Source: an uncultured Gemmataceae bacterium (GTDB lineage: Bacteria; Planctomycetota; Planctomycetia; Gemmatales; Gemmataceae). Taken from it: DNA of 64,000 bases. The translations under genes were made by a program, and so were the position numbers. Position 1 is the first letter of the stretch. Each line of letters starts with the position of its first letter. Shown here one piece after another: positions 16,662 to 30,313 of the stretch. Where the stretch lies: contig CAVVPN010000004.1 of NCBI GenBank assembly GCA_963750165.1, positions 64,001-128,000 of the forward strand. Reading direction: 5' to 3'. Under the pieces are notes generated by a model. It made no database searches, had not been told where the DNA came from, and worked only from the letters and a program-made list of their open reading frames with translations.

Positions 16662-18035
16662 CTACCCGGGGCGCTGCTGCGGCGGCGGCGCCGGCGGCTG
16701 CTCCAACCGCACCAGCGTCCACTGCTGCGTGCGGTCGGTGCCGAAATGCACGAGCATGTTCGTCTGCGGCTGCGTCAGGTTGCCGATGCCCGTCTCGTAC
16801 ACCACGTCCTTGCGGTCGCCGATGATCCAGGCGGCCCGCTGCGTCTTCGGATCAACGCTGCCAAACACCGGCAATGAGGTGTCGCTCAGGGCGTTGTAGT
16901 AGTTGCCGCGGAGGACGCCGTTCGCGTTGATCGCCAGCTGGAAGATGTGCGTGGCCTCCTTCTCGTCGCTCTGGATGGCGCCGAAGACGCCCAGCGGCTC
17001 CCACGGCCCGTTGTCCGGCGCCGGTGCCTGCACGCCCTGCTGCGCCAGGGCGGCGGCCTGCTGGGCGTACTGGTCGGCGGTGGTGATCGGGGCGCCGTTG
17101 TAATATACGTTGTTGCCCTGATACACAAGGGTGCCGCCGTAGTCGTAATAGATGGGCACCACCGGGAAGCGGCAGAAGTTCACCAGCCGGTTCCAGTTCA
17201 CGAAGTTCCAGTAGGCCAGCGGGCTCCAGCCGAACGGCCGCCAGGCGCGCGGGTGAGCAGTGTACCACGTCGGCGAGAAGTAGTGGTAGTGCGCGAAGTT
17301 TCGGCGGACGTAGTTGGCGCGATTGTACAGCGCGTAGTTGTTGACGAAGGTGGTGTGGTGACCGACCGCGACCGGCCGGGCGATCGGGTAGTGGACACCG
17401 TGGTAGGGCCCGACGGTGACCCGCGGCGTGATCACGACATGGCTGCCCGGCCCCACTACCGCGGGCGGCCTCGGCGTGACCACGGGGCGCGGCGTGACCA
17501 CCGGCCGCGGTGTGACCACCGGCCGCGGTGTGACCACCGGCCGCGGTGTGACCACGGGGCGCGGCGTGACCACCGGCCGCGGCCCCGGCCCCACGACTGT
17601 GACCGGGCGGTGGACCGCGACGCCGCCGCCGTGGGGGCCGACCACGACGCCGCGGCGCTGGTGAACGACCGGGTGATGGACCACGACGCTGTGGCTCTCG
17701 TGAACGACTGGGTGGTGGACCACGACGTTGTGGCTCTGGTGAACAACCGGGCGGTGGACCGCGACGCCGCCGTGGGGGCCGACCACGACGCTGTGGCTCT
17801 GGTGAACGACCGGGTGATGGACCGCGACGCTGTGGCTCTGGTGAACGACCGGGTGATGGACCGCGACGCTGTGGCTCTGGTGAACGACCGGGTGATGGAC
17901 CGCGACGCCGCCGTGGGGGCCGACCACGACGCTGTGGGCCGGGCGGTGGACCACGCGCTGACCGCGCAGTTCCGCGTCCGCCGCGAAGAACGCCGCCGCC
18001 AGCAGCCCCGCCACCACGAGTAAGCGCTTGCTCAT
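16662..18035 (-). CDS. Secreted protocadherin-like planctomycete protein with His/Val-rich and VVTPRP repeats
   Basis: GAGG RBS and signal peptide MSKRLLVVAGLLAAAFFA. The C-domain reads YYDYG...WEPLGVF...FQLAINANGVLRGNYY...QRAAW...ETGIGNLT...QQWTLVRL. Confidence 0.8.
   Translation of the reverse strand: MSKRLLVVAGLLAAAFFAADAELRGQRVVHRPAHSVVVGPHGGVAVHHPVVHQSHSVAVHHPVVHQSHSVAVHHPVVHQSHSVVVGPHGGVAVHRPVVHQSHNVVVHHPVVHESHSVVVHHPVVHQRRGVVVGPHGGGVAVHRPVTVVGPGPRPVVTPRPVVTPRPVVTPRPVVTPRPVVTPRPVVTPRPPAVVGPGSHVVITPRVTVGPYHGVHYPIARPVAVGHHTTFVNNYALYNRANYVRRNFAHYHYFSPTWYTAHPRAWRPFGWSPLAYWNFVNWNRLVNFCRFPVVPIYYDYGGTLVYQGNNVYYNGAPITTADQYAQQAAALAQQGVQAPAPDNGPWEPLGVFGAIQSDEKEATHIFQLAINANGVLRGNYYNALSDTSLPVFGSVDPKTQRAAWIIGDRKDVVYETGIGNLTQPQTNMLVHFGTDRTQQWTLVRLEQPPAPPPQQRPG
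17473..17945. repeat. Coding tandem repeats (18-nt VVTPRP x6; 39-nt VVHQSHSVAVHHP-type units)
   Basis: Directly visible repeats such as GGCGTGACCACCGGCCGC and GTGAACGACCGGGTGATGGACCGCGACGCTGTGGCTCTG. Confidence 0.9.
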
Positions 18036-18060
18036 AGATTCCTCCGTTGGGGTTGGGGCT

Positions 18061-18977
18061 TCATTTGACGCGGGTGACCTTGACGGGCGCGATGTTCGGC
18101 AACTCCTCGCCATCGGAGGTGCGGTCGATGGACTGCCAGGTGAAGCTGTCGCGGTCGAGTGGGATCAGCAGGTTCGTGGCCTTGATCTCGGTGCCGTCGG
18201 CGTGGACGCCCGTGGCCTCCTGCGTCCAGCGTTTGCCGTCCCAGGTCCAGACTGCCTCGCCGAAACCGCCCTCGCTGTCAAACACCCACGAGCGCACCTG
18301 GCCGGTGCGCGGATCGCGGCCAATGCGCTGCGTGCCGGAGACGCTGTGGTCGGGGCCCTTGACGGTGAACTGCGCGATGAGGAATTTCTTGGGCTCGTCC
18401 CACGCATAGGTGGTCTTGACCTCCGTGTCCTTGTTTTTGGCGACCCAGCTGCCGACCAGCCAGTTCAGGTCGTTCAGGGAGTGCGGTTCGGTGGGCCAGT
18501 CGCGCAGCACCGCGATCAGCCATTTGCCGTTCTCGCGGACGTGCAGGATGCTGTACTTGCCGGAGGTGATAAAGTCTTTTTTGCCCTGGACGCGGGCATG
18601 ACCCTCCTCGATGGCACTGTCCTTGCTGACGAAGCGCACGGAGTCGGTGGTCATCTCGACCCGCAGACCGGGCGTTTTGGCGAAGTGGTCCTTGTAGGCG
18701 GCCTCGATGGCGGCGCGGCCGCGGATGGTGGCGCCGTTGTCGGCGATGTACTCGCCCTCCGCGGTCCACAGGGCGGCCAGCTTTTTGGCGTTGCTCTTCT
18801 CGACGGCGGCAGCGAACGCCTGCGTGGACTTGACGATGGCTTCACGGTCGGCCTTGCGCTCCTGTTCCTGGGCGCCGGCGCGGCCGTCGGGGGCGTCGGT
18901 TGCGGCAGGGCGCTCCAGCCAGCGGCCAGCAGGCCGACCAGCGCCACCACTGCCCACCTTGAACCTCGGGTGTTCAT
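18061..18977 (-). CDS. SgcJ/EcaC (SnoaL/DUF4440-like NTF2-fold) secreted protein; frameshift near 18880
   Basis: Signal peptide from ATG 18977, then DREAIVKSTQAFAAA...LWTAEGEY...GRAAIEAAY, LNWLVGSW and QVRSWVFDSEGG. Confidence 0.82.
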
Positions 18978-19492: not shown

Positions 19493-19727
19493 GATGCCTC
19501 CTGGGTTTGGATGGGGGAAGGGCCGCCCCTGGGGTGTGAGACAGGAACGATACCCGCGGTGACGATACGGATGGGATAGCGGGAACGGGGCGCTTTTCAA
19601 GGAGGAAAACGCCGCTGGCGGTGGGCACCGCTTGCCCGCGCCGGCCGGGGCGTATAATGGGACACCTTCGTGGCACGGCTCTGGAGAGCCGTGCCACGAA
19701 AAACCAAACCCACAGAGAGTCGCTCGC

Positions 19728-21509
19728 ATGGCCCACAGTTCGCGCCCCGAAACCGTCACCCTGGCGCAGGCCCGGGAAATCCTCCGCTGCATGGCCGACC
19801 AGCACAGCATCCTGTTGCTGTCCGGGCCGGGCGTCGGCAAGTCGGACATCGTTTACCAGGCGGCCGCCGATGCCGGGCTGCCGTGTCGCTCCCTCGTCGG
19901 CACGCAGATCGCACCGGAGGACGTGAGCGGCATTCCGCGCATCATCGGCGAGCGCTCGGTCTTCTGCCCGCCGCGCGTCCTGCTACCGGAGCAGCCCGAG
20001 CCGTTCTGCCTGTTCCTCGACGAACTGCCCGCCTGCACGCCGGACGTGCAGAAGGCGTTCTATTCGCTGCTGCTGGAGCGCCGCCTCGGTGAGCACCCGC
20101 TGCCGCCGGGCACCTGGGTGGTGGCCGCCGGCAACCGCGTCGAGGATCGCTCGCTGGTGCGTGCCCTGAGCAGCGCCCTGGTCAACCGCGTCATCGTCCT
20201 GCAAATCCGCGTCGATGTGGAGGAGTGGCTGGCCTGGGCGCGCGGCCAGAAACTGCGGCCGGAGGTCATCGACTTCATCGCGGCGAATCCGCAGCTGCTG
20301 CACCGGCCCGTGCCGGATCGGCCCGCACCGTTCTCGACGCCGCGGGCCTGGGCGTCGCTAGCGCAGGCGCTGGACCTGATGGAAGCGGCCGGTCATTTGA
20401 CGCCCGCCATCCGCCTCGCCCTGGCGGTCGGGCGCGTCAGCGCGCCGGACGCCGCGGCGTTCTGCCGATCCGCCGAGGTCAAGGACGCCGCCCAGGTCAC
20501 CATCAGTTTGGGCCAGGCGAAAGCGCTGTTGAAAGCGCTGGCCCACCAGCAGAGTTTGCTGTTGCAGGCGCCGCCCGGCGTCGGCAAGACCGCCATCGTG
20601 GCCCAGGCGGCGGCGGACGCGGCGCTGCCGTGCCGCTCACTGCTGGGCACGCAGATCGCGCCGGAGGACGTGAGCGGCATCCCGCGCATCGTCGGTGAGC
20701 GGTCCGTCTTCTGCCCGCCGCGCGTCCTGCTGCCCGAGCAGCCCGAACCGTTCTGCCTGTTCCTCGACGAACTGCCCGCCTGCAGCGCCGACGTGCAGAA
20801 GGCGTTTTATCCGCTGCTGCTGGAGCGGCGGCTGGGCGAGCACGCGCTGCCGGCCGGCAGCTGGGTGGTGGCGGCCGGCAACCGCGTCGAGGACCGGGCG
20901 CTGGTGCGCGACCTCAGCGCCGCGCTGGTGAACCGGCTGTTCCTGCTGCAAATCCGCGTGGACACCGACGAGTGGTTCCACTGGGCCGAGGCGGAGGGGC
21001 TGCGCCGCGAAGTGGTGCTGTACCTGCGGCACATGCCCGAGGCGCTGCTGCGGCCAGTGCCAGCCGAGCCGGTGCCGTTCTCGACGCCGCGCGCCTGGGC
21101 CATGCTCGCCCACGCCCTCGACCTGGCGGAGCGCGGCGGTATCCTGACGCGCGCGGTCCGCCGCGCCCTGGCGTTTGGCCGCGTCTCGCCGGAGGACGCC
21201 GCCATGTTCTGCGCCATGACCGAGACGCCCATCGCCGACCTGCGCCTGGCCGAGCACTACGTCGAGCACCCCGAAGAGCTGCCGGCCGCCGAGACGCCGC
21301 GGCTGTTCATCCTGGGTCGCATTCGCCGCCTGGCGGAGACGGGCAAGCTGAACGGCCACGCGCCGGCGGTGCTCAACCGCTTCCTGCGCGCGCTGTCGCA
21401 GGAGCACCGCTTGACCATGCTGGTGGACCAGGTGCCGCTGTGGGGCGCCCTCGGCGCCGACGATGCCATGCTGGAGACATTGTGGGAAGTCACGGGGGTG
21501 AAGCCATGA
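19728..21509 (+). CDS. MoxR-like AAA+ ATPase with two tandem near-identical AAA domains
   Basis: Two copies, 249 aa apart, of Walker A (GPGVGKS / PPGVGKT), GTQIAPEDVSGIPRI, Walker B LFLDE, AAGN, ALVNR and PFSTPRAW. TATAAT at 19653. Confidence 0.9.
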   Translation: MAHSSRPETVTLAQAREILRCMADQHSILLLSGPGVGKSDIVYQAAADAGLPCRSLVGTQIAPEDVSGIPRIIGERSVFCPPRVLLPEQPEPFCLFLDELPACTPDVQKAFYSLLLERRLGEHPLPPGTWVVAAGNRVEDRSLVRALSSALVNRVIVLQIRVDVEEWLAWARGQKLRPEVIDFIAANPQLLHRPVPDRPAPFSTPRAWASLAQALDLMEAAGHLTPAIRLALAVGRVSAPDAAAFCRSAEVKDAAQVTISLGQAKALLKALAHQQSLLLQAPPGVGKTAIVAQAAADAALPCRSLLGTQIAPEDVSGIPRIVGERSVFCPPRVLLPEQPEPFCLFLDELPACSADVQKAFYPLLLERRLGEHALPAGSWVVAAGNRVEDRALVRDLSAALVNRLFLLQIRVDTDEWFHWAEAEGLRREVVLYLRHMPEALLRPVPAEPVPFSTPRAWAMLAHALDLAERGGILTRAVRRALAFGRVSPEDAAMFCAMTETPIADLRLAEHYVEHPEELPAAETPRLFILGRIRRLAETGKLNGHAPAVLNRFLRALSQEHRLTMLVDQVPLWGALGADDAMLETLWEVTGVKP

Positions 21510-22744
21510 AGACCGACGCCGATCAGGCATTGCTTGAGAAAATCCAGGAGGGCTTCCGCCGGGTGGGGCTGACGTTCCCGTACCTGCAGGGGCTGATCGA
21601 GATTGTGCGCGCGCGTGTGCAACTGGATCGGCGCATCGAGACGATGGGCATCTTCGCGTCGGGCCGGTTGCTGGTGAACCCGGATTTCGCGGCGGCGCTG
21701 TCGGCGCGCGACCTGGTGTTTGTGCTGACGCACGAGCTGTTCCACCTGACGCTGCGGACGCACGAGCGCGGCGCGGGCACCGACCTGCGGGCGTTCAATC
21801 ACGCCCACGATTACATCATCAACGACCTGCTCCGCGAGGAGCTGCAATACGACCAGGTGCCGGCCGGCGGCCTGGACTGGCCGGGGGCGCGGCTGAAGTC
21901 GGCGGAGCAGATTTTGGGCGAGATGGAGCGCGAGCCGTGGCGGCAGTCGCAGGCGGCGGGGGGCGGCTGGTTCGTCGAGGGCCAGGGCGGCGACGGCCCG
22001 ACCCTCGACGCGCCGGGCGACGTGCTGGACGCCGCGACGGAGAGCCAGTTGTTCCCGAGCGACGCGCCGGGGGCGCGACAGGAAGCCACGCGCGCCGTGG
22101 AGGAGCAGGCGGCGCGGGCCACGGCGCTGCAGGCGCTGATGGATTCGATGCGCGGCCACGGGCGCGGCACCGAGGCGGGCGGTCAGCAAGATGCGGTCGA
22201 GGCGCTGCGCGGCCTGTACCGGCCGCCGTGGGAGCTGGCGCTGCAGCGCTGGCTGGAGTCGGTGGCGCCGGGCGCGCGCAGTTATGCGCGGCCGTCGCGG
22301 CGCGGCGCTGACCGCAGGGACGTGGTGCTACCCGGCCACAAGCGCGAGGGCTGGACGCTGCACGTCGTGCTCGACACCAGCGGTTCGATGGTCGAGGAGT
22401 TGCCGCGTGCCCTGGGCGCCATCGCCGACTTCTGTGAGGCGATGGGCGTCGAGCAGGTCCACCTGATCCAGTGCGACACGGAAGTCGGCAGCGATGAGGT
22501 GCTGGCGCCGGCGGAGCTGGCGCGCTGGCAGGTGACCGGCTACGGTGGCAGCAACCTCAGTCCCGCACTGCTGCGGTTGGCCGAGGACCGTGAGGTCGGC
22601 GCCGCCATTGTGCTGACGGACGGCGACATTGAGTATCCCGAGGAGCCGATGCCGTACAGCGTGCTCTGGGTGCTGCCGGCGTGGAAGCGGCCGGAGGAGT
22701 TTACGCCGCGCTACGGCAAGGTCATCGGCATGACGCACGGATAG
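21506..22744 (+). CDS. DUF2201-type putative metallopeptidase + vWA protein
   Basis: ATGA overlap, HELFH (HExxH) zinc motif, NHAHDYIIN, and vWA MIDAS residues DTSGS...GGS...LTDG. Confidence 0.88.
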   Translation: MKTDADQALLEKIQEGFRRVGLTFPYLQGLIEIVRARVQLDRRIETMGIFASGRLLVNPDFAAALSARDLVFVLTHELFHLTLRTHERGAGTDLRAFNHAHDYIINDLLREELQYDQVPAGGLDWPGARLKSAEQILGEMEREPWRQSQAAGGGWFVEGQGGDGPTLDAPGDVLDAATESQLFPSDAPGARQEATRAVEEQAARATALQALMDSMRGHGRGTEAGGQQDAVEALRGLYRPPWELALQRWLESVAPGARSYARPSRRGADRRDVVLPGHKREGWTLHVVLDTSGSMVEELPRALGAIADFCEAMGVEQVHLIQCDTEVGSDEVLAPAELARWQVTGYGGSNLSPALLRLAEDREVGAAIVLTDGDIEYPEEPMPYSVLWVLPAWKRPEEFTPRYGKVIGMTHG

Positions 22745-22867: not shown

Positions 22868-24686
22868 TTATTTTTCCGCCGACCACAACTTCACCGTCCT
22901 GTCCGCGCCCCCTGACGCCAGGGTGCGGCCGTCGCTGCTGAAGGCCACGCAGTGGACCACCCCCTTGTGCCCGGCGAGCGCCGCCAGCTGCTTGCCCGCA
23001 GCCACGTCCCACAGCCGTACTGTGCCGTCGTCGCCGGCGCTCGCCAGTACCTTGCCGGCCGGGTCCACCGCCAACATCCGCACCGGCCCCTTGTGCCCCT
23101 TCAGGGCCGCCCGTTCCTTGCCGGTGGCCGCGTCCCACAATTTCACCAGCCCATCCTTGTCCGCCGACGCCAGCGTCTTGCCGTCCGGCGTCAAGGCCAC
23201 CGCCAGCACCTCCGCCGCGTGGCCGCCGCGGAATTTCTCTTTTTCCTTGCCGCGCTCCCACAGCCGCACCGTCTTGTCGGCGCTGCCCGTCGCCAGCACC
23301 TGCTCGTCCGCGGAGAACGCCAGCGCGTGGATCACCCCCGTGTGGCCTTTGTAAACCTCGTTGGCACGGTTGGGCACCTCCCGGCCTTTCAGGGGACGCT
23401 CGATCAGGTGCAGCACGTGGTCCTTCGCGACGCCCGCCCAGACCTGGGGATCCTGCAGGACTGCCAGCAGTTGAAGTCCCTTGCCGCTGCCGCCGTTGCC
23501 CACATTTTTCGCCAGCTTGTAGAGCGCCAGGTTGAACACGTCTCCCCGTTGCCAGCCGACGCCCAGGTAGCGATCCTGGTCGCGCAGGGCCACCACACGA
23601 ATCACGCCGCGCTGCATCTTGCCGAAGAGGGTCCGTTCTTCCTTGCCGGCTCTGGCGTCCCACACCTTGACGACACCGTCCTGATCGCCGCTCGCCAGGA
23701 TTTTTTCCCCGAACGTCAGCACCTGTACGGCCTCCTGGTGTCCCTGGAGGGTGGCGCGTTCCTTCCACACCGGCGCCGGCTGCACGACAGGGGCCGCCGC
23801 GGCCGGCAGGATCACCGCGACCGGCGGCTTCTCCGCCCGTGCCGGCTGCGCCCGGGACGACACCCACAGGCCACACGCCAGCGCCGCCAGCAGTCCCAGC
23901 GCCGCCGCCAATTTGAGCTTGGTTAGCCACATGATTCGTATCACCCCTTCCGCCAGGGCAGCGACCTCCGCCGAGACCGCCGCGCTCCCCGTGTCCACCG
24001 CCGCCCGTGCCGTTGCCGCGGCCAGCGCCGCCGGCACCGCCGCCCCCGCGTGCCCCGCCAGCAGTCCCCCCAGGAGCCCGCCCGACACCGCCAGGCCGTG
24101 CTGCCGCAACCGTTCCGCCAGCAGCTTGCGGCCCGCGGCCAACCGGCTCGACAGCGTGCCCTCCGGCACCGCCAGCTGCCGCGCCGCCTCCTTGCGCGGC
24201 CGGCCCTCCAGGTCGCACAGCACCAGGGCGGTGCGGTACTTGTCCGGCAACCGGGCCAGCTCGGCGTCGAGCAGCGGTTGCAGGTCGCTCCAGAGGTCCG
24301 CCGCAGCGCGGGCCGAGTCGTGCGTCTCCCTCATGGTCTGCTCGTGAGTCCGCCGTCGGGCGTTCCGCTTGCGCGCCTCCAGGGCGGTGCGCCGGGCCAC
24401 GCCGTACAGCCAGTTGCCGACCTGTTCGCGCGGCCGCACCGCCGCCGCCCTGCGCCAGCACCAGGAATGTTGCCTGAAACGCATCCTCCGCGTCGTGGGC
24501 GTGGCCGACGATGCGACGACAGACGCCGAGTACCATCGGCCCATGGCGCCGCACCAGGGCCGCGAACGCCCCCTCATCGCGCCGGCGGACGAACGCCTCC
24601 AGCAGATCGCCGTCGGCGGCCGCGTCCCCACAGAGCGCGGCGCCGCACAGGTCCTGGATCACCCGTGTCAGGGAATGGGTCGCCAT
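22868..24686 (-). CDS. ECF sigma factor with TM helix and WD40 C-terminal extension; frameshift near 24453
   Basis: DGDLLEAF...[15 protein letters not shown]...[13 protein letters not shown] (sigma2), LPDKYR...EGTLSSRL (sigma4), a TM segment and GH...LWD WD40 repeats. Confidence 0.9.
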
Positions 24687-24803: not shown

Positions 24804-27480
24804 TCAGTCAGCCGCGTCGGGTAGCTCGCGCAGCCAGCTCAGCCGATAGCCCGCGGGCAGCACCTTGGCGGCCGCGGCCGCGCAGGCGGCGCGGGCGGCG
24901 GCCGCCGACACACCGGGGGCGAGGTTGGCGGTCACTGTCGCCATCGGCTCACCGTTGAAGCGCTGCACGACCATGGGGCAGGTGTACTCGCGGATGCTCG
25001 CCACGGCGCGAAGCGGCAACAATTTACCCTTGTTGGTGCGGACCTGGAGCGACTCGAGCCGCTCGGCACCCTGGCGAACCTCCTTCTTCACGCTCACGTT
25101 GATCTGCCAGGTGCGGCCGAACTTGTTGAAGTCGTTGATGTAGAAGGAGCCAAAGACGGCCTGCAGTGGCTTGATGACCTCGTCCATCGAGACGCCCAGG
25201 CTCTTCAGCTTTTCCGGGTCGATGGCCAACATCAGGTTTGGGGCCTCGCGGTCGCCGGGGCCGCAGCCCACGTCGGTCAACTGTTTGCTTTCGGTCAGCA
25301 GGGCGGCGAGCTGCTGCGCCAGTTCGTTTACGCGCTGCTCGTCGGGGCCGTGGACGGCCAGGGCGACGGCGTACCCTTCCTGCGACAGCTGGCCGGGTCG
25401 CGCCGGGTCGCCGACCCGCACCAGCGCTTCGGGAAGCTCGCGGCCGAGCAGCTGGCGGAGGGCGACCGCCACGCCGGCGCGGCCGCCCTCCGCCAGCTCC
25501 AGTCCCACCAGCACGCACCCCTGGTTGGAGCCGGGCGCCGCCGGCGGCCCGGACAGTTCCAGCACGTCGCACACCTCGTCCACGCGGGCCAGCAGCCGCG
25601 CGCACTTTTCCAGGGCTGATTGCGTGCGCTCCAGCGAGGCGTCGTCCGGCAGCCGCACGTCCAGCCGCAAATAGCCAGGCGCGGCGCCCCCGCCAGAGGC
25701 GTCAAAGCGCACAGCCAGGTGGACGCCCTTGGGCAGCTTTTCCCGGAGCTGCGCCAGCCGGGACCGCACCGCGGCGCTGACCGCGGCCGGCTGAGCCGTT
25801 GCCACGGGGGCGACGCCGAGGACGACCGCGGCCTGGCCGTTGCAGCGGGCCTTCCCCGCCGACGCGGTCGGGCCGCGCTCGATTGTGCCCACGTCCCGGA
25901 TACGGACCTGCCTGCCTTCCGGGTTGGTCTTCAGGGGGATGTTCTCGAGTTCGGCCGTGGTTTGTAGCGGGCTCGTCGTGTTCAGGGTGAAATCGAACCC
26001 CTGGCCGGCGGGGACCGGCGGTTGGCCGAGTTGGCCCGCAGCAGCCTGGGCCCCGTACTCCTGCACCACCAGCAGGACCTCCTGCACGGTGAGGTTCAAC
26101 GCCTGCAGCAGGTCCGGGTCCAGGTGGACGCGCACCGCCTGGTCGGGCGCGCCGAATAGCTGCACATCGCCGACGCCCGGCAGGCGCGTCAGGTCGCCGC
26201 GCACCATCTTGTTCGCGACCTCGCTGAGGGCGCGCGCGTCCTGCCGGCCGTCCGAGGTCAGCACGACGAACAGCAGCACGTCGCCGGCCTTCGGGCGGAC
26301 GATCAACCCGCCCTTCCAGACCGCCTCGGGCAGGACCGGCTGCAACAGCGTGACGCGGTTCTGCACCCGCACCTGGGCCTGCTGGGGGTCCGTGCCGGCC
26401 GCGAACGTGACGGTCAGGGCGTAATTGCCGGCGTGGTCGCACTGCGAGGTCATGTGCGTCATGCCCTCGACGCCGTGGACCTGCTTCTCGATGTGGGCGC
26501 CGACGGTGTCGGCGACGACCCGGGCGTTGGCGCCGGGGTAGGCCGCCTTCACGACGATGACGGGGCCGAAACCGGGCTGGACCGCGGCAGGCTGCGTGGG
26601 GCCTGGTTCCGGCGTCGGGTCGCCGAGGAGCGGCGGCACCACCGCGGCCGCGGCCGCGCCCAGCAGGCAAATGGCCAGCAGCGCCAGCGCGGGCAGCCGC
26701 AGCCGCGCCAGCAGTAGCCGCCGCAGCGCTCCCTGCACCATGGCCGCCACGGGCGCCGTCACGGCCTGGCCCGCGCCGGCCGGCAGCGCCGCCTGGAGGA
26801 TCGCCTGGACGAGCGCGGCCGGCACCGGCGCCAGGGCCGGGGCGGCGGGCAGCCCACCGACGGCCGCGGGCGCCAGCGTGACGCCGCGCCGGCTCAGCCG
26901 CCCGCGGAGCAACTGTTTGGCCCGCGCCAGCCGGCCCGAGAGTGTGCCCTTGCTCCAGCCCAGCAGTTGCGCCGCCTCCTCGTTGGTCTTGTGCTCCAGG
27001 AAGCAGTACACGAGCGGATCGCGGTACTTCTTCGGCAGCCGCTCCAGCTCCTCGTCGAGGACCGCGCAGGTCGCGCCGGGCTGCTTCCTCGGCGGGGTCG
27101 GCCGGCGGCGTCCCGGCGACGCGCTGCTCCCGGGCGCGTCGCCGGGCGGCACTGGCCCGCTCCTTGAGGGCGATGTGGGTCGCCACTTCGTGCAGCCAGC
27201 CGGCCACGGACATCCTGCCGTCCAGGGTACCGCCCTTGCGTGCCAGCACCAGGAACGTGGCCTGGCAGGCGTCCTCGGCGTCGTGGGCGTTGCCCAGGAC
27301 GCGCCGGCAGACGCCAAGCACCAGCGGGCCGTGCCGGTCCAGCAGCTGTTCAAAGGCGGCCTGGTCGTGCCGGGTGGCGTAGCTCCGCAGCAGCTGGCCG
27401 TCGGTCGCATGGCCGGCGACGGGCGTCCCGGTCAGCCGGCGGCAGTAGTCCACCACGTTATGCAATGGCTCGTTACTCAT
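24804..27480 (-). CDS. ECF sigma factor - TM - RND (AcrB/MexF-like) periplasmic headpiece fusion, paralog 1; 2-nt frameshift near 27065
   Basis: Sigma2 lies in the N-terminus of ORF 25702..27480; sigma4, TM and YPGANARVVADTV...GSFYINDFNKFGRTWQ...RFNG...LPAGYRLSW lie in ORF 24804..27410. Colinear with paralog 2. Confidence 0.87.
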
Positions 27481-27649
27481 GGCTCCCTACCTCCAGGGTT
27501 CGGCGCCGACGATACTGTCGCTTCCAACCGACCGTCACTTTACATCCACGCGCAGCAAACGCCGGCGACGTCTCGGCTGGTCCCTCCCTTCGCCGGCGTT
27601 CCCTCCCAGCTGGATCGTCGCCCGGTTGTGATGCACGGCCAGGCCGCCG

Positions 27650-30313
27650 CTACTCCGCCGTGGGCAGGTCGTGCAGCCAGTTCAGCCGATAGCCTGTGGG
27701 CAGGACCTCCGCGGCCAGGGCTTCGCACAGGGCGCGGGCAGCGGCCGGCGACACGCCGGGGGCGAGGTTGGCGGTCACCGTCGCCATCGGCGCGCCATTG
27801 AAGCGCTGCACGACCACGGGGCAGGTGTGCTCGCGGATGCTCGCCACGGCGCTGAGCGGGACCCATTCTTTCTTGTCATTGCGGACGAAAAGATTATCCA
27901 GGTCTTTGGGGAGACGGCGTCCCGCCGCGTAGACCTGATAGATGTGGCCGATCCTGACAAAACCCTGTTCCTCGGAGGAGCCTATGGTGATCTGCAGCGC
28001 GTCGAGGACCTTGTTTATCGAGAGGCCGTGGCGCTTCACCTTTTCCTCATCGATGTCCAGTCTAAAGACTGGGTTTTCGGTGTCGCCGGGGCCCCAACCC
28101 ACGTCCGTCAACTGTTCGCTCTTGTTCAATCGGTTGGCGAGTTTCTGCGCCAGGTCGCGCACTTGCCGCTCGTCGGGGCCGTGGACACCCAGGACGACGG
28201 CGTAGCCTTCCTGCGACAACTGGCCGGGTCGCGCCGGGTCGCCGACCCGCACCTGGGCCTCGGAGAACTCGCGGCCGAACAGGTTGCGGATGGCCGCCAC
28301 GCCGGCGCGGCCGCCCAGCGCCGGCCCCAGGCCCACCAGCACACACCCCTGGTTGGTGCGGCTCGCGACGGGCGGGCCGCACAATTCCAGCACGTCACGC
28401 ACTCCCTTGACGCCAGCCAGCCGCTGTACGCACTTTCCCAGGACCGTCTGCGTGTATTCAAGCGTGGCGCCTTCCGGCAGCCGCACGTCCAGCCGCAGGT
28501 AGCCAGGCTCAGAGTCGCTACTTGAAGCGTCAAAGATTACCTCCAGGCGGACGCCCTCGGGCAGCTTTTTCCGAAGCTGCGCCAGCCTGGATCGTACCTC
28601 GGCGCCGACCTCGGTCGGCCGGGCGCTCGCCAGGGGGGCGACGCCGAGGACGACCGCGGCCTTGCCGTTGTAGCGGGGCAGGCCCGCCGCCGCGGTCGGG
28701 CCGGTCTCGATTCTGCCCACGTCCTTCAACCGGATCAACTCGCCTTCCGGGTTGGTCCTCACGGGGATGTTCTCGAGTTCGGCCGCGGTTTGCGGCCGGC
28801 CCTTCCTGATCAGCGTCAAGACATTCTCCAAGCTTTGGCTTTTGACGCCCGTGGCCTGGCCGAGGCGCCCGGGCGAACCGATCACACTCTGTTCCGACAG
28901 TGCCTTCATGACGTCTTCGGAGGAGATTTTGTAGGCCCGCATACGGTCCGGGTTCAGCCAGACGCGCACCGCCTGGTCGGGCTCGCCAAACACCTGCACG
29001 TCGCCGACGCCCGGCAGGCGCGACAGTTCGTCGCGCACCCTCTTGTTCGTGACCTCGCTGAGGGCGAGCGCGTCTTGCCGGCCGTCCGAGGTCAGCACGA
29101 CGAACAGCAGCACGTCGCCGGCCTTCTGGCGGACGGTCACCCTGCCCTTCCAGACCGCTTCGGGCAGGACCGGTTGCAACAGGGCAACACGGTTCTGCAC
29201 CCGCACCAGGGCCTGCTCGGGGTCCGTGCCGGCTGTGAAGGTCACGGTCAACGTGTAGTTACCGGCGTTGTCGCACTGCGACGCCAGGTGCGTCAGGCCC
29301 TCGACGCCGCGGAGCTGCTGCTCGATGGGGACGGCGACGGTGTCGGCGACCACTCTGGAGTTGGCGCCGGGGTAGACCGCCTGCACGACGATGGCGGGGC
29401 CGAAGCCGGGCTGGACCGCGGCAGGCTGCACGGGGTTGTGCTCCGGCGCCGGGTCACCGAGGAGCGGCGGCACCACCACGGCGGCGGCGCCCAGCAGGCA
29501 CACGACCAGCAACACCAGCGCGGGCAACCGCAGCCGCGCCAGCAGCAGCCGCCGCAGCGCCCCCTGCACCAGCGCCGCCACGGGCGCCGACGCGGCCTGA
29601 CCCGCGCCGCCCGGCAGCACCGCCAGGGCGGTCGCCTGGACGAGCGCGGCCGGCACCGGCGCCAGCTCCGGGGTCGCGGGCAGCCCGCCGACGGCCGCCG
29701 GCGCCAGCGTGGCGCCGCGCCGGCTCAGCCGCCGGCGGAGCAACTCGCGGGCACGCGCCAGCCGGCCGGAGACTGTGCCCTTGCTCCAGCCCAGCAGCTG
29801 CGCCGCCTCCTCGTTGGTCTTGCCCTCCAGGTAGCAGTACACGAGCGGGTCCCGGTACTTCTCCGGCAGCCGCCCCAGCTCCTCGTCGAGGACCAGGCGC
29901 AGGTCGCGCCGCGCCGCTTCCTCGGCGGGATCGATCGGCGGCGTCCCGGTGACGCGCTGCTCCCGGAGGCGCCGCCGGGCGGCGCTGACCCGCGCCTTGC
30001 GGGCAATGTGATAGGCAACCGTGTACAGCCAGCCGGCCACGGACTTTTGGCCGTCGAGCGAACCGGCCTTGAACGCCAGCACCTGGAACGTGGCCTGGAA
30101 GGCGTCCTCGGCGTCGTGGGCGTTGCCCAGGACGCGGCGGCAGACGCCGAGCACCAGCGGGCCGTGCCGGCCCAGCAAAAGCTCGAAGGCGGCCTGGTCG
30201 TTCCGGGCGGCGAAGCTGTGCAGCAGCTGGCCGTCGGTGGCGTGGCCGGCCACGGGCGCGCCGGTCAGCCGGCGGCAGTAGTCCACCACGTTGTGCAATG
30301 GTTCGTTACTCAT
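27650..30313 (-). CDS. ECF sigma factor - TM - RND periplasmic headpiece fusion, paralog 2 (intact, 887 aa)
   Basis: One ORF carries sigma2/sigma4, one hydrophobic helix ([19 protein letters not shown]), then AcrB-like [61 protein letters not shown] and LPTGYRLNW. Confidence 0.92.

Follow-up and report, generated by a model that had tools for sequence, protein, structure and literature searches.

Planctomycete ECF sigma factors joined by a single membrane helix to the periplasmic head of an RND efflux pump

As a rule, efflux pumps are under the control of cytoplasmic repressors or of two-component sensors that are unrelated to the pump. Two tandem genes of an uncultured Gemmataceae bacterium (assembly GCA_963750165.1, contig CAVVPN010000004.1, positions 64,001 to 128,000) raise the question of why a sigma factor should carry the head of such a pump: in each of them, an extracytoplasmic function (ECF) sigma factor is joined through one transmembrane (TM) helix to the periplasmic headpiece of a resistance-nodulation-division (RND) permease. 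The 64,000 nucleotides analysed are referred to as the window, and plain coordinates are positions in it. An earlier interpretation made from the letters alone (the sequence-only reading) had proposed that the headpiece is the sensor of a one-component sigma factor, responding to efflux substrates or to pump assembly. Here we report that the architecture is real and recurrent and apparently undescribed in print, and that copy 1 can be described as an ECF57 sigma factor built on a natural module resembling AcrBper, an engineered soluble form of the AcrB head, for which a sensor function is plausible.

Copy 1 (P0001; 27650..30313, minus strand, as are all its parts) is an intact open reading frame (ORF) of 887 aa. 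It begins with sigma2 (aa 47-112, 29978..30175; Pfam PF04542, Sigma70_r2) and sigma4 (aa 141-192, 29738..29893; Pfam PF08281, Sigma70_r4_2), which carry the conserved Cys58 and Cys160, respectively. The hydropathy profile has one peak, at aa 263-281 (29471..29527; KD 2.93, best downstream window 1.58), and basic residues before this helix indicate an N-in, C-out topology. A proline-rich juxtamembrane linker (aa 282-305) leads to periplasmic loop 1 (aa 306-597, corresponding to AcrB 41-331; 28523..29398) with the porter subdomains PN1 and PN2 and the docking subdomain DN. A short linker in place of TM2-TM7 (28499..28534) connects it to periplasmic loop 2 (aa 603-880, 27674..28507) with PC1, PC2 and DC, after which the protein stops, without TM8-12. 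The ACR_tran match comprises two stretches (E 8e-96), and the Pfam families found in copy 1 are limited to sigma and ACR_tran domains, with no fused anti-sigma domain. When copy 1 was compared with PDB sequences using phmmer, natural pumps matched in two stretches, and the engineered AcrB periplasmic construct (5EN5, 7B8R) in a single one, aa 306-880. The domain order of the sequence-only reading (sigma2, sigma4, one TM helix and both RND loops) is thereby borne out for copy 1, as are the approximate linker positions that it gave (located here at 28534-28499 in copy 1 and 25706-25671 in copy 2) and its expectation of one helix.

The predicted structure agrees with this layout. An AlphaFold2 model of aa 300-887, built from 18 sequences (pLDDT 77, pTM 0.70), superposed on AcrB with a Z score of 45.7 and 3.3 Å over 538 residues, which confirms for the monomer the expected likeness to the AcrB headpiece. 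The alignment skips from AcrB residue 331 to 572 and ends near 870. The top Foldseek matches were AcrBper structures (TM-score 0.71-0.74, with a root-mean-square deviation near 12 Å in that alignment). In the model of aa 1-290 (pLDDT 82), an ECF sigma factor precedes a long helix (aa 243-280), whose end is formed by the TM segment. Since TM2-7 and TM8-12 and with them the proton relay are missing, the head cannot pump.

Copy 2 (24804..27480, minus strand; P0002 designates the part after the frameshift) has the same architecture, including the linker between loops 1 and 2 (FDASGGGAAPGY, 25671..25706, minus strand), but its frame is broken between sigma2 and sigma4 by a 2-nt deletion at ~27063, where the corresponding site of copy 1 reads CCTGG. 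Sites of this type are error-prone in long reads. With the start at 27480 and the deletion taken into account, the N-terminus of the 868-aa ORF beginning at 27410 is wrong. The two tandem paralogs of about 890 aa that had been proposed, one of them with an intact ORF, hold in layout. A third tandem ECF57-type sigma gene, which has the same scaffold with a different, WD40 extension (22868..24686, minus strand), is frameshifted near 24450. Frameshifts are common across the assembly, where they affect several ECF genes and also ordinary RND genes, and that of copy 2 is probably an assembly error.

The two frameshifted genes would fit decaying pseudogenes or a misassembly, but the homologues in other assemblies make this explanation extremely improbable. 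An initial protein search recovered nine further proteins with sigma and ACR_tran domains (864-910 aa) from JGI and Logan contigs, which are 38-53% identical in the alignment and have the same junction and end as copy 1; P0198 is a tenth complete-head fusion. The same junctions in independent JGI and Logan assemblies exclude a misassembly of the architecture, and its recurrence in ten proteins argues, as the sequence-only reading had done from the two copies, against random decay. The frequency of frameshifts in other ECF and RND genes of the assembly points the same way. In all, 24 sigma-head fusions were found, 21 of them outside the present genome. Positions C58 and C160 are invariant in 10/10 aligned fusions and at least 90% conserved in 35 sequences, and a net positive charge precedes the TM helix in 21/24 sigma fusions, a positive-inside pattern that places the sigma domain on the cytoplasmic side. 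P0011 and P0012, two similar sigma-head fusions that both lack the inter-protomer loop and whose longest contig is 45,918 in each case, are probably a second tandem pair.

The fusions belong to a larger family. A profile search with the head classified 136/263 proteins as TM-less, and 152 heads remained after genomic loci had been added and redundancy removed. Most of these are 600-640 aa long and have only an N-terminal signal or anchor. The linker that replaces TM2-7 (between the equivalents of AcrB 328 and 574) has a median length of 18 residues (range 8-24, n=151), compared with 302 in pumps. Named relatives of the head and its pumps belong to the Planctomycetota, including several Gemmataceae. 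TM-less heads occur in at least 19/251 other genomes of the bacterium's taxonomic family, a lower bound from four candidates scored per genome, with 587 matches beyond those listed. A search of genome contigs for related loci gave 80, all with match spans that do not correspond to a TM-less head, and these were used as outgroups; a degenerate junction motif had two matches among metagenome contigs, neither in a called head gene, and the ESM Atlas returned generic ACR_tran clusters only. The earlier view of the head as part of a sigma factor is upheld by the fold, the single TM helix, the homologues and long retention in one sigma lineage, but it had missed this large and mostly sigma-free family.

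Several relatives carry other partners. Fusions of the head to an RND adaptor (membrane fusion protein, MFP), placed before or after the head, made up 14/36 scanned proteins, and 8/14 of them lack much of the trimer loop (examples are L126:8131-10974, L128:6253-9144, L129:7950-10814, L122:6792-9588, P0125 and P0129); such proteins may serve as a pump base that lacks the motor, or as an adaptor scaffold. Among 53 neighbours scanned, stand-alone heads had no conserved gene neighbours except MFP genes; at 5/20 genomic loci, an MFP gene is either fused to the head or next to it on the same strand. In P0014, P0015, P0027, P0122 and P0251, the head follows two or three TM helices, pointing to a second kind of cytoplasmic partner; two of them have a Cys-rich N-terminus that we take to be zinc-ribbon-like. 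The stand-alone head P0150 (L115:7803-9713, genome G140) starts with residues like those of an ECF57 protein and runs straight into the TM helix; it is nested among sigma fusions in the porter tree, which suggests that its sigma core was lost.

A complete porter and docking fold, together with adaptor fusions in relatives, might suggest a split transporter, in which the head would work with a TM domain in trans or deliver ligands as a pump subunit, the sigma factor being incidental. We consider this very unlikely, as no free TM-only RND gene was found in the genome (5/5 head-less TM-domain ORFs overlap or abut head-bearing RND ORFs), no RND pump is present among the called genes of the 20 stand-alone loci, and the base of PN2, where it faces the TM domain, has other residues than in pumps.

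The history of the head was reconstructed from a porter-domain tree of 271 sequences, comprising the 152 TM-less heads, 90 pumps sampled from 178 together with the pumps of the present genome, eight partial fusions and AcrB; supports are FastTree local values. The main TM-less set and the HAE1 pumps lie on either side of one branch (length 0.52, support 1.0), except that P0249, although TM-less, falls among pumps. With heavy-metal pumps as the outgroup, the root came to lie within the TM-less set, which we treat as long-branch attraction, and only the unrooted split was used. Since the TM-less head forms a large, mostly sigma-free family, the TM deletion is probably older than the sigma fusion. 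P0018, P0035, P0059, P0075 and P0081 nest within the full-length pump subfamily of G000:C11:1712906, so that TM loss there is a separate event. The present genome has a third sigma-head gene, P0017 (G000:C11:1472288-1475482; L149:7001-10078), with a TM-less head of the CusA/CzcA type; this gene is a candidate metal-sensing counterpart.

In the sigma-core tree, 11/11 complete-head fusions fall into one clade (0.96) together with P0017 and one WD40 ECF, and three other sigma lineages carry heads separately. The sigma core of P0017 is sister to that of P0010, a fusion with an HAE1-type head (support 0.92); within this clade, a CusA-type head has taken the place of an HAE1-type head. By these trees, at least three pump lineages have given rise to heads of sigma fusions. 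P0001, P0004, P0005, P0006 and P0198 group in both the sigma and the porter trees, which indicates that their pairing has been kept through 38-53% identity. A broader scenario, to which we give only limited credence, is that planctomycetes have repeatedly turned RND heads, cut off from the pump motor, into receptors that a single helix connects to a sigma factor, HAE1-type heads reading organic compounds and CusA-type heads metals in the periplasm, with docking domains re-copied from resident pumps to match one adaptor or the protomers.

Which parts of the head have been maintained? Using AcrB subdomain boundaries that we assumed in our scripts, the 152 heads were compared with 178 pumps; as the head set consists largely of 50%-identity representatives and the pump set of top matches, contrasts within each set are comparable but absolute diversities are not. 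Residues specific to the heads are mostly located in PC1 and PC2 and include Cys at AcrB positions 626 (Ile in AcrB; 76% vs 0%), 844 (84% vs 0%) and 594 (61% vs 1%), Pro at 616 (88% vs 0%) and Arg at 664 (82% vs 1%). Loop 2 of copy 1 carries the family-specific C628, C657, P648 and C863. Disulfide pairing of the family cysteines is not supported, as their co-occurrence corresponded to chance (e.g., 68 seen, ~70 expected). Of the aromatic (phenylalanine) cage of AcrB, 2/7 positions are kept, and planctomycete-type pumps average 2.6; the pocket is still hydrophobic (9/11).

Docking subdomains are less conserved than the porter in heads (0.47 and 0.45 vs 0.54), unlike in pumps (0.67 and 0.63 vs 0.63). 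The trimer determinants P223, R780 and the inter-protomer loop, described as such in PMC3230630, have decayed: P223 is present in 34% of the heads and 93% of the pumps, R780 in 39% and 98%, and at least 8 of 28 loop columns are missing in 40/152 heads and 0/178 pumps. Both window copies keep the full-length loop and the equivalents of G217 and R780, which the family often loses. Among 149 non-redundant heads with intact ends, seven cleanly lack DN and/or DC and one lacks porter parts. Sigma fusions vary likewise: P0266 and P0267 lack DC, P0210 and P0269 consist of the porter only, and P0035 and P0081 keep PN2-DN-PC1. The pieces retained are structural units of the porter, whose deep binding pocket lies between PN2 and PC1 (PMC8277102). 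In sum, the alignments indicate that the porter core is kept, whereas the docking domain has degenerated or been lost or, in the case of copy 1, has had both its halves replaced.

This replacement is confined to two tracts. DNA identity between the two copies is 74-93% but drops to 54-59% at aa 451-510 and to 49-70% at aa 751-810. The DN tract of copy 1 (aa ~454-502, including the inter-protomer loop; 28808..28954, minus strand) derives from another pump subfamily (79% DNA identity over 126 nt), with 80-83% identity to the pump G000:C11:1712906 and 20-27% to copy 2. The DC tract (aa ~763-818; 27860..28027, minus strand) comes from the same foreign subfamily (47-54% vs 23-30%). In the DN and DC trees, copy 1 falls inside the C11 pump subfamily (local supports 0.69-0.90), whereas in the porter tree it is sister to copy 2 (1.0). 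Such a docking gap was found in 0/2390 pump pairs with a porter identity of at least 0.60 and in 1/13 head pairs, namely copies 1 and 2. Both the inter-protomer loop and its socket, as described in PMC3230630, fall within the swapped tracts. That both tracts lie in the docking domain and come from one donor subfamily suggests selection for a coherent docking surface, although they may also reflect neutral gene conversion between homologues. The DN of copy 2 groups with a pump of its own genome (support 0.96) and a docking swap is possible there too, but identities of 59-68% to two different pumps also fit slow evolution.

These results bear on the other function named in the sequence-only reading. 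In a monitor of pump assembly or envelope traffic, the docking domain would bind an MFP adaptor or RND protomers, the sigma factor would report free or stalled parts, and copy 1 would be tuned to the operon at G000:C11:1711793. The donor-type pump lies in this complete MFP-RND-OEP operon (OEP, outer membrane efflux protein), and the common origin of both docking halves, the absence of comparable gaps among pump pairs, the identity of the swapped tracts and the frequency of fused or adjacent adaptors are all in its favour. Since DC, or the docking domain as a whole, is missing from four sigma fusions, assembly sensing cannot be a general function; moreover, trimer determinants have decayed in the family, and the DC of copy 1 shares no more than 50% identity with the donor subfamily, compared with 77% among the members of that subfamily, and has a 4-residue deletion near AcrB 773-777. 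Such a monitor would suit copy 1 and the adaptor fusions, but we regard it as rather improbable. An orphan adaptor of the same type as the MFP of the C11 operon (G000:C3:2664833-2666283; L154:8833-10284) has an additional helical region at its N-terminus and lies away from any pump gene; it is a candidate partner for copy 1.

The reading that we prefer, with confidence a little short of even, is that copy 1 is a membrane-tethered, ECF57-type sigma factor whose porter chamber receives a periplasmic signal and whose sigma part is released by proteolysis. The sigma domain would be held at the cytoplasmic side of the membrane. The four-subdomain porter chamber, with its remodelled PN2/PC1 pocket, PC1/PC2 cleft and Cys at the position of AcrB I626, would bind a small compound, either hydrophobic or reactive; because the phenylalanine cage is not kept, there is no ground for assuming that the ligands are AcrB-type drugs. 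Binding would alter the conformation or stability of the head, and the proline-rich linker and the helix would then be exposed to periplasmic and intramembrane proteases, freeing the sigma factor. The docking domain would be an optional accessory that may set the oligomeric state or the choice of partner. In favour of this reading are the AcrB-like fold, the ligand binding of AcrBper, the positive charge before the helix, the lasting sigma-head pairing in one clade, the recruitment of heads from at least three pump lineages, the loss of docking rather than porter parts among the TM-less heads, and the smallest sigma fusions, in which the porter alone (P0210, P0269) or PN2-DN-PC1 (P0035, P0081) has been retained.

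Several observations weigh against this reading. Taken together, pocket columns do not exceed the remaining porter columns in conservation (0.51 vs 0.54), and those on the PN2 side are less uniform in heads than in pumps (0.37 vs 0.46); in favour of the reading, columns on the PC1 side are more uniform in heads (0.69 vs 0.49). P0016 and the fusion in G213 (L178) keep only the PN1/PC2 half, without the deep pocket. Most family members lack a sigma factor, and the primary job of the head need not be signalling. A query with sigma4-TM-PN1 found complete fusions in 1/267 genomes of the order, namely the present one, and the half-head fusion in G213. No efflux operon adjoins the window copies or the CusA-head copy in the gene neighbourhoods scanned. 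The ratio of nonsynonymous to synonymous substitutions (dN/dS) between copies 1 and 2 is 0.60 for the porter and 0.37 for the sigma2 region (0.37-0.82 by region), weak evidence of constraint, although the ratio may be inflated by a third-position G+C content near 90%.

Part of this evidence fits a fortuitous capture, in which a duplicating ECF57 sigma-TM cassette landed before the gene of an exported TM-less head, which would be a passenger or a generic protease-sensitive anchor with no ligand input. Capture of sequestered neighbours has been proposed for planctomycete ECF extensions (PMC7671368). Supplementary file 18 of that study names 267 Pfam families in such extensions, including HlyD and OEP and not ACR_tran as far as the file was accessible, and ECF57-type extensions in the present genome are likewise varied (WD40, leucine-rich repeats, cytochrome c peroxidase, DUF1501, TIGR03067 and an OEP fragment). 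Stand-alone heads are also commoner than sigma fusions and intermingled with them in the porter tree, and the dN/dS evidence is weak. Capture explains the origin of the fusions well. It accounts less well for a sigma clade that keeps the full head across 38-53% identity, for the exchange of an HAE1-type for a CusA-type head within that clade, for the separate TM loss in the P0018 group nested in full-length pumps, and for the two matched docking replacements of copy 1, which look selected. We judge capture to be unlikely, if a serious contender, and retain the sensor reading as preferred.

Two other ECF57-type genes touch on efflux components: one has a weak match to OEP (TolC-like) in its extension (L134:3136-4449), and the other, with TIGR03067 domains, lies directly downstream of an MFP-RND-RND operon (L135:3001-4914). 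The neighbours of the window copies are the ECF-WD40 gene and genes for a small membrane protein, an SDR-family protein and a deaminase. Elsewhere in the window, the genes for a MoxR-like AAA ATPase, which is tandem-duplicated, and for a DUF2201 metallopeptidase-vWA protein are arranged divergently (19632-22744), and 16662-18113 encodes an exported protein of 483 aa that has no Pfam match and contains two kinds of repeats, His/Val-rich (VAVHHPVVHQSHS) and VVTPRP.

If the sensor reading is true, a receptor made from a pump's own head would be a new route from a transporter to a signalling protein. ECF57 would gain an input domain that is soluble, has a known fold and can be compared with an engineered protein that binds ligands, which makes its mechanism of activation directly testable. 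From the ~150 natural TM-less heads, with clean deletions and swaps of subdomains, it can also be seen what portions of an RND head are able to fold and assemble once the membrane domain is gone. Such heads are annotated in public databases as 'multidrug efflux pump subunit AcrB' and thus inflate counts of resistance genes, although they are incapable of pumping.

Copy 1 was also compared with known systems. It is assigned to the ECF57 type by its Cys pair and TM-bearing extension; the group, found in Planctomycetes, is defined by one Cys in sigma2, one in sigma4 and a C-terminal extension with about two TM helices on average, and shares the occurrence of tandem paralogues (Casas-Pastor et al. 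2021, PMC7826278; Marcos-Torres et al. 2022, PMC8999054). Copy 1 differs from the ECF57 average in having one TM helix and an RND head as extension. Release from the membrane has been proposed for ECF57, and promoter motifs are reported not to be conserved (PMC7826278); no member with a tested input was found in the literature consulted. The portion of the supplement of Casas-Pastor et al. that was available mentions AcrB once, among neighbours of ECF16 (PMC7826278). Full-text literature searches did not retrieve the sigma-RND-head architecture, though supplements of planctomycete surveys could still list such a fusion.

The model for release by proteolysis is IutY of Pseudomonas putida, whose periplasmic domain is FecR-like. 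This sigma/anti-sigma hybrid (ECF243) likewise combines a cytoplasmic sigma factor, one TM helix and a periplasmic domain in one chain, and its release by proteolysis has been shown (PMC8999054). In IutY, however, the extension is a fused anti-sigma factor signalled by an outer-membrane receptor, neither of which was found for copy 1. HAE1 RND permeases (AcrB, MexB, OqxB, BpeF; TIGR00915, NF000282) share with copy 1 the subdomains PN1, PN2, DN, PC1, PC2 and DC in order and fold, but have twelve TM helices with the D407/D408/K940 proton relay, where copy 1 has one helix. They are obligate trimers held together by the DN loop and the DC socket. Copy 1 also scores far under the HAE1 cut-offs (NF000282, 369.6 vs 1250; TIGR00915, 335.7 vs 940) and, unlike these permeases, lies outside any MFP-RND-OEP operon. 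The nearest structural match is AcrBper (PDB 5EN5, 7B8R-T), in which the same two periplasmic loops are joined by a short linker. The engineered fusion is soluble, forms trimers in crystals with DARPins and binds doxycycline, fusidic acid and levofloxacin (PMC8617272). Compared with AcrBper, the head of copy 1 is natural, anchored by one membrane helix, fused to a sigma factor and remodelled in its pocket (2/7 aromatics, new Cys and Pro), and it belongs to a family in which, unlike in AcrBper, the trimer loop is variable.

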